Assembly: GCF_045037415.1 (NCBI RefSeq)
Contig: NZ_CP173438.1
DNA length: 64,000 nucleotides
Strand: one strand, 5' to 3'
Source of the DNA: Escherichia coli
GTDB taxonomy: Bacteria > Pseudomonadota > Gammaproteobacteria > Enterobacterales > Enterobacteriaceae
Every line of letters begins with the position of its first letter. The first letter of the stretch is position 1. Below, piece after piece: positions 30,101 to 36,100 of this stretch. A program made the position numbers.

Positions 30101-33100
30101 ATAAGCGTCTTGAACGCTGTTTCCGCGCAATAGTATTTTTCTTATACGAAGCATGTTATAAATCCAGTAGATCAATTGCGGTCAATCGGTCGAATTCAGA
30201 ACCCCATTGCCCCACATTCTGAGATATATATGAAGCAAGTTCTTCATCCGTATATTCATAGAATTGCTTTGTGACCCAAGAGGCACGTTCTGCGAGCTCT
30301 TTTGAATACTGTGACATCAAAAGCCGCACAAACCTTCCTGTTAAATTGGTAGCCTGATACAAAATACCTTCGGCAGCAAAGACAACCTTAATCAATTCTC
30401 TTGATAGCATTAAATGCAGCCCTGCCTGAATTGCGCTTCGCTTAACAAGAAGCTCTGCTCCCCGGTGAGGAACTGCTGGATGAAGGCTTTTAGGCCCCCT
30501 AGGTACGTCACTGGTATGCACAAGAAGATAGTCATACGAAACTATCCTTTGTAGGTCCATTGCTACATTGTCCGCTGCATCCAATATGAACAGAGCACGA
30601 AATCCATACTCCAGCGGAGTGTTAAAAGGTCTCTGCTCAAAGTTTCCTTCAAATACTTGCATTTCGCTCATGGATTGCACCAATTAATCAAGTTTGTATT
30701 GGCTAGTTGGTGGCATATACCTTCACGATCCTTATTCGTTACGTGAATGGCAAGTGGGTGCGCACCAAGTTGCAGGGTCTGAGCGGCCTTGACGGTATTT
30801 TTTAACCGAAGGAGTGGAGTCCCTGTCAGGTCAGAGGTGTAGTGATACAGACCATCATCAAACTCTACAAGTAAAGAATTAAAGAATTCTTGATTCGCCA
30901 TTTGGTCCCTAGCGAGTTCCTTTAGCCCTTCCGAGCAATAAAAAGTTATTCGGGACCGTTCAAAGAGTTTTACATGGCTGATACTTGATTGAAAATCAAC
31001 TAAATCTCGCACGTTGGTTTTGATATCAGCGCTGATAACTGAAAAGAGTTGTTCAATATATACAGTTTCAATGGGAGCCACAGATGATGGGGGCCTAGTT
31101 GGTGGATCCCGCTCAATTAATGGTGCGCCAAAGACCATAAGATGAAAAGAGGTTTTACTGTGTTCGGCAAGTATCTCAATAGGCTGTTTTGCATGAAAAA
31201 TACTAAAATCAAACTCTTTAATATATTTTTCAAGTTCAGGCGTCAGGTCAACACTATGTTTCGATGTAATTTGCTTTGAAAAAGTTGCCCACTCGGATAG
31301 CATTTTCTCTTTGAGTTTAGTTGGATCATCTAGGAGGTCTTGGAATGGCGATGTTACCCCTTTATGTGTAACAAAATGGTATTGTGTAGGTACTGTGTAG
31401 TCCTTGATGAAAGTATAATAGATAACTTTTGCAACTTCGATGCCTGCCTTAGGAAGGCCTAAATTCGCATCATAATGTTTGCATTGATATAAGTGCCATC
31501 TTCGAGGAACAGCATCAGATGGATCAAGCCATACAACAATATCTCTGCCTTTATCTCCTGCCCCGCCACGTTGTTGTACTTCGTTGACATATTGCTGACC
31601 AGCTAAGTATTCAGAGGCCCATTCGAGTGTAAACCTTTCAAATTCGGCGGCGCTAAACTGTGCCAGACGATCCAAGGGGGCTATTGGAAGCCCTACACCT
31701 AACCCAAGCAGCCGAGCGTTCGCACCCGGCCACGTTGTAGGAGCAGAAAGCGCGCCAAGCGTCGAACTTGAATTTTGTTTCATCTTCTCTACCACCACAA
31801 CCTCCATGGAGAAGTGATATTAAATCTTTAGTCTTTTAAAATTTTACAAAATCTAACACAGTGCGCCAGGAAAGTAATTGACTAAGGTTCCCCACACACA
31901 AGAGCAAATCTTAACCTTGCTACGGGACATAACTACTTCCGCCCCACCGGCTACCCAGTCATCGACAGTTTGGCAGCTCACTCCACTGTGCCGAGCATAA
32001 GCCTCTTTTGACATCAGCATTTTTATCTCTTTTCATAACCATCACTTTGATGGGTGTAGATTGATAAAATGTTTTTTGATTTCAATAATTGAATCAAGTA
32101 TGGGTTTGAATAATGAAAAATCGATAGTTTTTCTATTTTCCCTTACTATATAAGTAGCAAATCTATCTTTTCCAAATGTAGTAGAACTGTCATGATTATT
32201 GCTTTTATCGAAGCTTTTTCCATTATACTTCATTTGCAAAACTTTTGGTTCAAAAAAATCCTCTAGTGAAGAATAGTTATCCCCTGGTAATAACGGAGTA
32301 AAAAGAACATATAAATTACTCTCTAAGTGATAAAACGCCCCTTTTCTAACATCCTCCGCTTTTTTTGGTAGATGCGAATAATCCTTTATTATTTGATTTA
32401 TGAAGTCAGATGGCCCTGTGTCATTATCTAATAAAATTATCACTGGATTTTTAGGAGGCTGTTTTTCATACGCTTTACAAAGTAAACCATGTCGTCTGAA
32501 AAACCTCGAATAGTCTGCAGCTCCACCAGACAAATCGAGAAAATATTTTTTCTTGTCATTGGTTTTAAATAAATTAACTTTTAACACTCTATTCTTTGTG
32601 TTTTTTTCCTCTCTAACTAACTGAGGGTAATCCAAAAACAAAGAATCAATTGCACACTTAAGATAAACCGGGTCAGTTTTCCCTTCTGTTAAGATTGTTA
32701 TTTGCTCATTTCCATAGAAATTTTTATAGTATAGGAATTTGCTGTATGCTTTCTCTCTGGAGTTAAGTCTCTGCTTAAAATCCAACCCAAATCCTTTAAC
32801 CACATATCTCTCAGGACGCGCATTTTTCTTTGCTTCCACATTATTATATTTATCAAGCATATCGATAAATGCAAATCGCCCTTCTAATTCACTAAGGGTG
32901 CCCTTTCTATGTTTTCCATCTTTCTCAATAAGTGTATACGAACCTTCAAAGTATAAAGAATGCGCCATCGCTCTTGTATTCTTTATATACTCTCTGCTTA
33001 CATTTATTTTTTTATTTACAGTTAAACCTGTAACTTGCTGTCTTGATGTACACCTAGACACTCTGTTTTTATTATGGTTTAAAGTGAAGCCTGCACGATG

Positions 33101-36100
33101 AATTTCTTCTACCAATATCTTACCTGGTTCGTTTTCTTTCTCATTAGAAACTAATGCATCAGGGATGTTTTTTTTGTTTGTTGAAAACGTAATGTCATCT
33201 GCATAGCGGCTGTAACTACAACCATATGTGACTGCTAGCTTTGATAATCTGAAATCTAAAATCCTACAAATAAGATTAGTTATTACTGGAGAACAAGGGC
33301 TTCCTTGCGGAAGCGATCCATCCAGGCAGGCTATCTGCGCAATAATGGTTGCAACATTTGGATGTAACTTGAAATTTTGGTTTGCAATAAAATATCCTCG
33401 CACGCGACCAAAATTAAAGGATGGGAAGAAATTCTCAATATCAATATTAAATACAATATTTTTATCTCGATGCCTCTCAGCATTTGTAATTATAGTTTTA
33501 TTCTTCTCAAAACCATGTGATACATTTTGTTTAATATTATTTTTTGCCCAAATTTCTTCCTGGCATATATATAGAAGTTCAGAAAGTCGTTGTTGAATAT
33601 CTTTCAGTTTTTCATCAGGAGCAAAGATCTCCCGCTCTCCTCCAGACTTTTTCTTTATAGTAAATTTTTTGTATTGATTTTCTGGCCTTATTCTATACAA
33701 AACATTAGTCAGAAATGTAACTTTAATCTGAAGCAAATCAGCCAGTTCAAATTTGTTACAACAAGCCTGCAGCCTTGCCAGATAGGTAGGTTTAAACATA
33801 ACAGTAAATTCCATTATTGATTATGTTAATGCACATGCAGGTACTCTTACGCATTTAACGGTGACGCCAAGATGACTTGACGGCAGTCAGAGGGCGAATA
33901 CTCCCGACCTTGTTAACACTGATTGCGATACCACAACCAACAAATCTACCTGCATGTGCCGTATTAAATTAGCATAGTCATCATATAACTCAAGCCCCCA
34001 ATCAATTTTTTTCAAAATCCTCAATAAGTTATAGATGGTTTGCGTTCTGTTCATTTCTGGCATCAGAGTGATGATTAGGCAAGTTAGCTGGGAAAATTTA
34101 TCCGGAGTATATACAAAGAAAGTAGTCAGCCCAGTTGAATCATCTAAACAAGACCAATTAACTAATTTATTTAAATGAAAAATAATGCTTTTGAGCTAAC
34201 CAATTATGCACTTAAGCTAAATTTACCGTTTTTGGGGCTAGCCCAACATCGAGGGCGCATAAGCTTTAGCCCACTTTTACTTTCCTGTTTTCTTTAGTAA
34301 CAGAAGGTTAACTATCAAATATTTTTGTTGGGCTATGTGGGCTAACAGTTTTCATATTTACGTGTTTTTTTATTCTTCTCCGGTTTCCGTTTCAGATACC
34401 GGAGTAAACAACAGCGTATAAGCCCAGGGACGTGCATGCTTGAGGTGTCTCAGCCGTGGCATACGTATCAGCCATCCCTCCACGCTGGTGGACTTTTTGA
34501 GCATTCCAGCCTCATGAAGGATTCTGCCGGCAGTATCCTTGCTGAGAGGAGTAGAACCTACGCCCTTCGCATTACGAATGCGAGCTAACTCCAAAATGAG
34601 TACGAACATGAGTACAAAAAAAATATATCATTAAATGTAGTATAAATTTCAATCAGATACAGCAAAAATTACAATTCAACGTCTAATTCCGCTAATACTA
34701 CTCTGGCGGTTAATAACGAGCCATTATGTGAGTTGCACGTAATGGCTTTTTTACGCCTGCTACGCGTCTTCTTTCAATTCTGAGTTACCAAAACTCATAA
34801 TCAGACTCCTGACAATATTAACAATGCAGCTTTTATGTGATAACAATCACAGTGCATTAACCGTTCAAGAGTTTGTCATGAAAAAAACATTTACCTTCAG
34901 CCTGTTAGCAATTGTCTTTGCAAGCCTGTTGAGTGCTTGTGTTCCCCACCATCATCACCGCCACAGCGATGGCCCTCGTGGTCCTGCGCCCTCCGGTAAG
35001 CCAATGCCACCTTCAAATGGTGGACCAAATCACGGCAGTCATGGTCGCTATTAATTAGTAATTCATAGCGGGAAAGTACATACTCTCCCGCTATCCACGG
35101 CGCTTAAACTGCCCTGCATCAATGCCATGTTGCTTCATTTTCCGCCACAGCGTAGTGCGGCCGATTCCAAGTAAAGCCGACATTTCCTGAATGCGACCGC
35201 CTGTGACTTGGGCTGCGTTAATAATTGCCTCTTTTTCAACTTCCGCAAATGACAGACTGGTGGAAAGGCGGGTGGCGCTGACATCATCTGTCGCCTGCTC
35301 GGTAAACAGATGTTCCGGCAAATCACTGACGCGAATGCGCCCATTATCACTACTCAGAGCAAGATTCTCGATGACGCTGTAAAGTTCAAAATCGTTGCCA
35401 GGCCATGCACAGGAAACCAGGCGAGCGAGGGCATCGTCATCAATTTTCAGCCGCGTAGAGAAGCGTTTTTCAAGGCTGCGTAATTTGTTATTCACCAGCG
35501 CCGGAATGCTGCCACGCCGCATACGCAGTGGCGGGATGGTAATTTCAAATGCATGCAGCGCGTAATACAGCTGGCGACTAAAACGATTTTGTTCCACCAG
35601 CATTGCGAGGTCCGCGGTCGTTGTGGCAATCACTTTGACATCAATGGGTATTAAACGCCGCGCATCCAGTCGCGTGATAACACCCTGCTTGATAACCTGA
35701 AGCAAAGCAGACTGTAACTCCACCGCCAGATATTCAATCTTTTCAAGAAACAGCGTGCCGCCGTGCGCCAGTTCCAGCCGACTCAGACGGCCATTTTCAT
35801 TATCCGTGCGATCGCCACCAATAAATTCTTCCGCCAGCGCCGCATCACCATATAACTCACAATTGACGGCGATATAAGGCCCCGCTGCACGCTCGCTTTC
35901 ATTATGAATTGCCTGACTTAGCAGTGCCTTGCCCACGCCCTCTTCTCCACAAAGCAGGACAGGAAAGCTACTGCGCGCCGCCTGGCGACCAAAATGAATC
36001 AAGCGGCGGGTTTGCGGATCGTCCTGTGGCATATGAGCGAAGGTATGGCTGACTTTTCCTAATTGACTGGTCATTAACTGCCGCATCTGTTCCACAGGAT

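Follow-up and report, generated by a model that had tools for sequence, protein, structure and literature searches.

Upstream of a gene for a reverse transcriptase (RT) fused to a Toprim domain, the stretch of Escherichia coli DNA under study (contig NZ_CP173438.1; 64,000 nucleotides (nt), called the window here) carries a short inverted repeat on the same strand. The question raised by this locus is whether the gene and the repeat-bounded segment together form a retron, as had been proposed from the sequence (the original prediction), and whether such a retron would still serve as a defence against phages. Our analysis indicates that the locus is almost certainly a type I-C retron, and very probably an intact one of the Ec67 (Retron-Eco2) family acting as a single-gene anti-phage system. 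This reading is directly supported by the gene and its family membership, the conservation of the catalytic residues, the homology of the non-coding RNA (ncRNA) and the covariation of its a1/a2 repeat. The production and exact ends of the multicopy single-stranded DNA (msDNA), the caging of the nuclease in a trimer, the triggers and the cleavage of tRNA are proposed by analogy with Eco2.

The RT-Toprim protein and its relation to Ec67

The RT-Toprim fusion gene lies on the minus strand (32042..33814) and encodes 590 amino acids (aa) from its first ATG; it was recognised in the open reading frame (ORF) listing and with PADLOC, NCBIfam, PDB and RefSeq. Its start codon is ambiguous, as the first ATG at 33814 competes with a start at 33799 (585 aa, WP_000476153.1), which is favoured by the Prokaryotic Genome Annotation Pipeline (PGAP) and by the alignment with Met1 of Ec67. 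The original prediction had described a 590-aa ORF on this strand carrying YADD, QGxxxSP, TEGKTD and DND motifs, and all of them were found in it.

The family of the protein was determined by profile and structure comparisons. PADLOC matched its RT-Toprim_I-C model over the full length of the protein (E=5.3e-214), and the NCBIfam model NF038237, "retron Ec67 family RNA-directed DNA polymerase/endonuclease" (retron_Ec67_fus), gave 702 bits against a cut-off of 450. The best match among solved structures was the Retron Ec67 protein (PDB 9i2f/9lm3, residues 8-583, E=4e-188). The alignment with Ec67 runs from end to end with 50% identity over the full length (RT part 53%, Toprim part 43%), which bears out the proposed Ec67 architecture. 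The models of other RT classes scored far below their cut-offs (43 bits for the group II intron RT, cut-off 300; 35 bits for Drt2, cut-off 390, both in NCBIfam), so that the profile scores place the RT with type I-C and not in a non-retron clade. By its sequence, it is a member of retron RT clade 8, type I-C, the latter being the name now in use for this class.

The catalytic residues of both domains are conserved. The RT core (Pfam RVT_1, 5.5e-18) spans aa 53-265 (33020..33658, minus strand) and contains QGSPCSP at aa 170-176 (33287-33307) and the catalytic YADD box at aa 204-207 (33194-33205), which aligns with the YADD of Ec67 at 199-202. The C-terminal, OLD-like Toprim nuclease domain was delimited by residue-by-residue alignment with Ec67 to approximately aa 370-585 (32060..32707, minus strand). 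It carries TEGKTD at aa 376-381 and DNDTG at aa 463-467, in which Toprim motif IV (EGxxD) corresponds to E377, G378 and D381 (32672-32689) and motif V (DxD) to D463 and D465 (32414-32428); S516, E518 and K549 are further Toprim residues. In the alignment, Y199-D202, E374, G375, D378, D460, D462, S513, E515 and K546 of Ec67 are all identical in the window protein. Several of the conserved YADD and Toprim residues were shown by mutagenesis to be needed for the defence and the RNase activity of Eco2 (PMC12405507). The loop involved in trimer contacts in Ec67 is partly conserved as KKNARPERYVVKGFGL-DFKQRL. No counterpart could be assigned to the "catalytic lysine K562" named for Eco2, as position 562 of the Ec67 translation is Asp; judging by the alignment, the conserved Lys of the YGK motif (K546 in Ec67, K549 in the window protein) is likely the residue meant.

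Retron-Eco2 (Ec67; type I-C1; PDB 9I2F/9I2G/9S1F/9LM3) has the same gene order as the window locus, i.e., an ncRNA followed by a single RT-Toprim ORF, and shares with it the EGxxD and DxD motifs of the Toprim domain and all the catalytic residues tested. Subtypes I-C1 and I-C3 have EGxxD together with DxD, whereas I-C2 has DxE (PMC7736814), so that the combination found here fits I-C1 or I-C3 and not I-C2. The next-best families in PADLOC were types XI (RT-protease) and XII (RT-TIR), whose related RT domain matched aa 15-360 with 1e-98 to 2e-100. These are likewise retrons of RT clade 8 with a single fused effector (PMC7736814), but their effector is a protease or a TIR domain and not a Toprim domain; the Retron_TIR model of NCBIfam gave 284 bits against a cut-off of 600. 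A Toprim effector with two-metal chemistry is also found in type I-B retrons (e.g., Eco8) and in OLD and Gabija GajA. There, the Toprim domain belongs to a separate ATPase-Toprim protein, whereas the window protein has no ATPase and its Toprim domain is fused to the RT.

The Ec67 locus itself was recovered among the loci collected (L003), with YADD at 199-202 and DxD at 460-462, numbered as in the Eco2 papers, and its ncRNA agrees with the one that the retron census supplement prints for Eco2. In the PGAP annotation of this locus (L003 2597-4477), the genuine Ec67 RT is given as a 626-aa protein with a start codon inside the msr-msd, whereas the experimentally numbered start is at L003:2717 (586 aa). 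The closest relative found is a prophage retron from IMG/VR (L005/L006/L035/L051) located among tail and terminase genes. Its RT-Toprim protein is 72% identical to that of the window; a1, the msr and the 103-nt distance between a1 and a2 are the same, and the msd interior differs. The Ec67-family RT of E. coli OkiPb01683 (L002 3158-4890) is frameshifted and was matched in two pieces by tblastn; its ncRNA is intact, and it represents a decaying copy in a P2-like prophage.

The ncRNA upstream of the gene

The original prediction had noted a 12-bp inverted repeat enclosing 105 nt. A perfect repeat was indeed present upstream of the gene on the ORF strand, but its length is 13 bp and it encloses 103 nt. 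The a1 arm (GCACAUGCAGGUA; 33947..33959, reading GCACATGCAGGTA on the minus strand) and the a2 arm (UACCUGCAUGUGC; 33831..33843, minus strand), both found by the repeat search and by covariation, are 100% complementary over 13 nt. The repeat ends 16 nt before the first ATG and 31 nt before the PGAP start. Among 5000 shuffled versions of the 701-nt upstream region, only 9 had a perfect inverted repeat of at least 13 bp within 250 nt, and the folding energy of the 141-nt minus-strand RNA (-49.9 kcal/mol) corresponds to z = -3.6. In the Ec67 register, the complete ncRNA (msr-msd) comprises ~130 nt, from G33960 as position 1 to the end of a2 (33831..33960, minus strand), as delimited by the covariance model and alignments.

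To collect homologous ncRNAs, IMG/VR was scanned for the 16-mer AGATTTGTTGGTTGTG with a flanking inverted repeat required, and a more distant locus (L007) was added via its protein. Most of the 53 matches of the 16-mer on viral contigs were chance matches with no a1/a2 partner and were removed by the requirement for the flanking repeat. Eight distinct ncRNA variants were gathered, Ec67 included. In all eight, a1 (13-14 nt) comes first, then an invariant G with AUUU after it, the msr hairpin, an interior that varies, and a conserved tail before a2; the tail reads GCG(U/A)A(A/G)GAG, and CGCUAAUGAG in L007. Over these eight homologues, the a1/a2 helix was paired in 104 of 104 cells, and nine of its 13 pairs were changed on both sides, i.e., by compensatory substitutions. 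The observed values were reached in none of 500 shuffles, and registers slid along the alignment were paired to at most 52%. Folded singly, all eight sequences form the a1/a2 stem and the msr hairpin.

A covariance model (R1) was then built from six aligned Ec67-family ncRNAs with the window sequence left out. Against the 64-kb window, it gave a single significant match, which covered the model over its full length (33829-33961, minus strand; 104.3 bits, E=1.6e-27; the next match had E=3.9). Together with the covarying a1/a2 stem, this match of a homologue-built model shows that the segment has a conserved fold. A distant blastn comparison with E. coli genomes agreed with these limits, as the similarity to another Ec67-family locus starts at window position 33959, the first base of a1 (query position 42). 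The view of the repeat-bounded segment as a candidate msr-msd thus gained from two sides: it is homologous to the experimentally defined msr-msd of Ec67 and was matched independently by R1.

The more distant RT-Toprim locus L007 (41% identity) shows the same ncRNA architecture at 1334-1468, with a 14-nt a1/a2, G-AUUUU and an msr hairpin. Its a1/a2 sequence is unrelated to that of the window, as is the sequence of the hairpin at the msr position. Its interior could not be aligned by MAFFT, and R1 did not report L007 although it was among the sources searched; it was used for the a1/a2 count and the single-sequence folding only. L007 may be useful for a broader model of I-C ncRNAs.

The G directly 3' of a1 is invariant in 8 of 8 homologues and is followed by the conserved AUUU. 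In the window, this is G33946 (minus strand), which stands in the register of rG15 of Ec67 and is predicted to be the branching guanosine whose 2'-OH primes msDNA synthesis. At the level of sequence, a candidate branching G just 3' of a1 is therefore present as originally expected. The RNAalifold consensus then gives an msr stem-loop of 8 bp (UUGGUUGU/GCAAUCAG) with a 6-nt loop (33919..33940, minus strand). All 7 aligned sequences retain it, the changes in it being one-sided only, and it is the equivalent of the RSL of Eco2, rG20-rU42 (PMC12405507).

The limits of the msDNA were predicted by transferring the register of Ec67. In Eco2, rG15 primes msDNA synthesis, the A located two nt 5' of a2 serves as the template for dT1, and synthesis stops at rG52:dC67 (PMC12916289, PMC12405507). 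In the window, the first template base would be A116 (33845) and the termination site G52 (33909), giving a predicted msd template at RNA positions 52-116 (33845..33909, minus strand). The predicted msDNA is 65 nt long, 5'-TCTTACGCATTTAACGGTGACGCCAAGATGACTTGACGGCAGTCAGAGGGCGAATACTCCCGACC-3'; it begins with TCTTACGC and ends with CCCGACC-3', and its first ten bases resemble the start of Ec67 msDNA, TCCTTCGCAC. The Ec67 RT-DNA printed in the retron census supplement starts with TCCTTCGCACAG.

The ncRNA of Ec67 has in common with that of the window a 13-nt a1/a2, G15 with AUUUGUUGGUUGUG after it, the msr hairpin, the GCG(U/A)A(A/G)GAG tail before a2 and, at position 52, where synthesis terminates, GG; the Ec67 msDNA and the predicted msDNA of the window both start with TC(T/C)TT(A/C)CGCA. 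The two ncRNAs differ in a1/a2 through compensatory substitutions and in the msd interior, which in the window has an unrelated sequence and is shorter by 2 nt, so that the msDNA is predicted to measure 65 nt as against 67 nt in Ec67.

The ncRNA has no annotated feature in RefSeq. A permissive Rfam scan of 31500-35200 (E<=10) returned no retron family and two chance matches (E ~7-9). The Rfam library evidently contains no Ec67-type ncRNAs, so that the missing match has no bearing on retron membership.

Upstream of the ncRNA, a possible weak sigma-70 promoter was read by eye as TTGAGT, a 16-nt spacer and TGcTAATTT (33966..33993, minus strand), with the -10-like element ending 6 nt before ncRNA position 1. 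Judged by its sequence and place, this pair is a possible promoter of the retron.

Host lineage, genomic island and neighbouring genes

The window comes from E. coli of sequence type 131 (ST131) and is 100% identical to EC958 and O25b:H4-ST131 strains. The 2.6-kb retron locus was found in 510 of 5426 complete E. coli genomes (at least 99% identity with at least 80% of the query covered), and its location was chromosomal every time. The retron forms the dhaR-proximal end of a ~26-kb island (window ~8700-34675) that separates ychF from dhaR and carries a P4-type integrase and ISEc24 at its other end, next to ychF. In genomes with the empty site, ychF adjoins dhaR and the homology to the window restarts at ~34675, which upholds the earlier placement of the retron at the right edge of a genomic island. 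No direct repeats of at least 10 nt were found at the island ends in the intervals tried, and no tRNA genes were found in the 64-kb window. Ec67 and its other E. coli relatives, on the other hand, occupy P2-like prophages, where they lie between the replication endonuclease/DinI genes and the portal gene, whereas the window copy lies in the ychF-dhaR island beside a Lamassu system. An ST131-specific genomic island carrying "Lamassu and Retron" is described in a 2026 preprint.

The retron is kept intact beside insertion sequences, the RT ORF being undamaged in some ST131 genomes with IS1 or IS5 nearby. In some of them, IS1 is inserted between the RT gene and lmuA (L062 2616-3313), and in strain SK1144, IS5 lies upstream of the retron ncRNA (L063 352-1275).

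Directly downstream of the retron lies the three-gene Lamassu system (28268-31807, minus strand). It consists of genes for an LmuA-like effector (30668-31807, PADLOC 1e-105), LmuC (30156-30683, 4e-57) and the SMC-like ATPase LmuB (28268-30175, 3e-176), all on the minus strand; PGAP names the LmuA-like and LmuC proteins "ABC-three component system" proteins. Between the RT stop codon and lmuA, there is an unannotated 55-aa ORF (31853-32020, minus strand) with no PADLOC or NCBIfam match, and a weak terminator-like hairpin (31853-31869) overlaps its end.

On the other side of the retron, 700 bp of non-coding DNA separate the ncRNA from the end of the island; two perfect short inverted repeats with GGGCTA cores, TAGCCCAACA/TGTTGGGCTA and TTAGCCCAC/GTGGGCTAA, lie there at 34239-34353. 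A small conserved ORF beside dhaR (34878-35054, plus strand), hypothetical in PGAP, codes for a tail rich in His, Pro and Gly (HHHHRH...) behind a lipoprotein-like signal sequence.

Proposed mechanism, alternative readings and significance

In Eco2, the Toprim active site is caged by msDNA within a 3:3 complex of the RT-Toprim protein and msDNA (PMC12916289, PMC12405507). The decay of msDNA is started by the phage endonuclease DenB, and A1 is also implicated; the released Toprim domain then nicks the acceptor stems of tRNAs and translation stops (PMC12916289). The same trimer, the RNase activity and DenB escapers were reported in an independent study (PMC12405507).

The window retron probably works in essentially the same way. 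The ncRNA and the mRNA for RT-Toprim would be parts of a single transcript starting just upstream of 33960. Its a1/a2 stem would present G33946, and the RT would prime on the 2'-OH of this G and use the msd (33845 to 33909) as the template for a branched msDNA of ~65 nt that would stay hybridised to the msr at its 3' end. As described for Eco2, a trimer of RT-Toprim:msDNA units would then form, with the Toprim nuclease caged by msDNA. Phage DNA endonucleases, which for Eco2 are DenB or A1, would degrade the msDNA and so free the Toprim RNase to nick tRNAs, and the resulting translation shutdown would abort the infection.

Several points weigh against this reading or narrow it. The Pfam search of the window protein finds RVT_1 but no Toprim domain; the Toprim assignment therefore rests on the homology to Ec67. 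The detection of RVT_1 only is consistent with the I-C Toprim being a separate lineage of its own (PMC7736814). RNAalifold found no msd hairpin supported by covariation, its support being limited to a1/a2, the msr hairpin and an invariant CGC/GCG triplet, and the interior is not conserved with Ec67. Of the fold originally predicted, the a1/a2 stem and the msr hairpin thus stood, while the long msd hairpin did not find such support, and therefore no structure of the msd can be claimed. An unconserved msd interior is usual among retrons. The consensus scan found no consensus-grade sigma-70 site upstream of the ncRNA, and the TTGAGT/TGcTAATTT pair fails it too. The 510 copies of the locus are essentially clonal (ST131), and their identity therefore tells little about selection. 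The two Eco2 structure papers (PMC12916289, PMC12405507) are at odds on some details of the msDNA path, and it is from Eco2 that defence, msDNA and triggers are transferred to the window copy. The presumed sensor is the msd interior, and since it bears no relation to the Ec67 one, the range of triggers may differ; judging from the sequence, so may the three-way-junction architecture of the msDNA and the trigger specificity.

Some of these points would also fit a genuine Ec67-family retron that is inert or decaying in ST131, i.e., poorly transcribed or producing no msDNA and surviving through the youth of the clone. Such a state would agree with the lack of a strong promoter, with 510 near-identical clonal copies that carry no signal of purifying selection, and with the visible decay of other family members, such as the frameshifted RT of L002. 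It is nevertheless improbable, as the ORF is full-length with every catalytic residue intact, a1/a2 is perfect (13/13), the branching G is present and the ncRNA scores 104 bits against the family model; transposon insertions in the ST131 island carrying Lamassu and the retron are also reported to give a fitness phenotype (2026 preprint). Much less credible still is the reading of the repeat as a terminator, an attenuator or an island-end repeat beside an RT of a non-retron class (DRT/UG, Abi or group II intron). All that speaks for it is that 13-bp inverted repeats, like RT domains, are found in a wide range of settings, and it is effectively refuted by the covariation of the a1/a2 stem, the NCBIfam scores of the group II intron and Drt2 models and the R1 match. 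The homology of the segment to the experimentally defined Ec67 msr-msd and the lack of a T-run after the stem speak against it as well.

The position of the Lamassu genes raises the further question of whether the retron and LmuA/C/B form one composite system, in which, for example, msDNA or the RT would feed Lamassu sensing. The two share a strand, the RT stop is only ~235 nt away from lmuA, and they are co-inherited in the ST131 island. Nonetheless, tblastn found no Lamassu genes near seven other Ec67-family loci, and in P2-like and other prophages the relatives are solitary genes. Besides, one gene is enough for defence by Eco2, the retron and Lamassu are separated by a terminator-like hairpin, and IS1 parts them in some ST131 genomes in which both ORFs are still annotated. 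A composite system is hence very improbable. Since the relatives occur alone with no Lamassu, the retron is a self-contained module, and its adjacency to Lamassu in ST131 is best read as defence-island clustering, the Lamassu operon most likely being an independent neighbour. Judging by the solitary homologues, the system consists of a single protein and requires no separate effector gene. The intact, single-gene type I-C retron thus remains the preferred reading.

The system itself is already known. RefSeq names WP_000476153.1 a retron Ec67 family polymerase/endonuclease, the exact protein sequence stands on at least 1000 contigs under the Ec67-family name, and the family, structure and mechanism have been published (the Eco2 mechanism was solved in 2025-2026), in agreement with the original remark that the family is described. 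Our literature search, which included WP_000476153, found no paper characterising the ST131 copy, the EC958 genome paper does not mention the locus, and the window ncRNA was absent from the accessible part of the retron census supplements. New here are only the delineation of the ncRNA and the prediction of a 65-nt msDNA: for an ncRNA that is unannotated in genome records and missed by Rfam, the coordinates, the branching G and the predicted msDNA are now defined. This adds little to retron biology, and its practical value is modest.

A tentative idea, which we regard as rather unlikely, is that the ST131 copy, given an msd interior of unrelated sequence, has a sensor specificity unlike that of Eco2, and that it answers to other phage nucleases or to DNA-modifying enzymes. 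Together with Lamassu, it might then shape the phage susceptibility or the gut fitness of ST131, as hinted by the transposon fitness signal for the island (2026 preprint). The retron and the neighbouring Lamassu are present in ~9% of complete E. coli genomes (the ST131 lineage), which bears on the design of phage therapy against ST131. As a natural paralogue of Eco2 with a different msd, the ST131 retron is suited to testing how the msDNA sequence sets trigger specificity.

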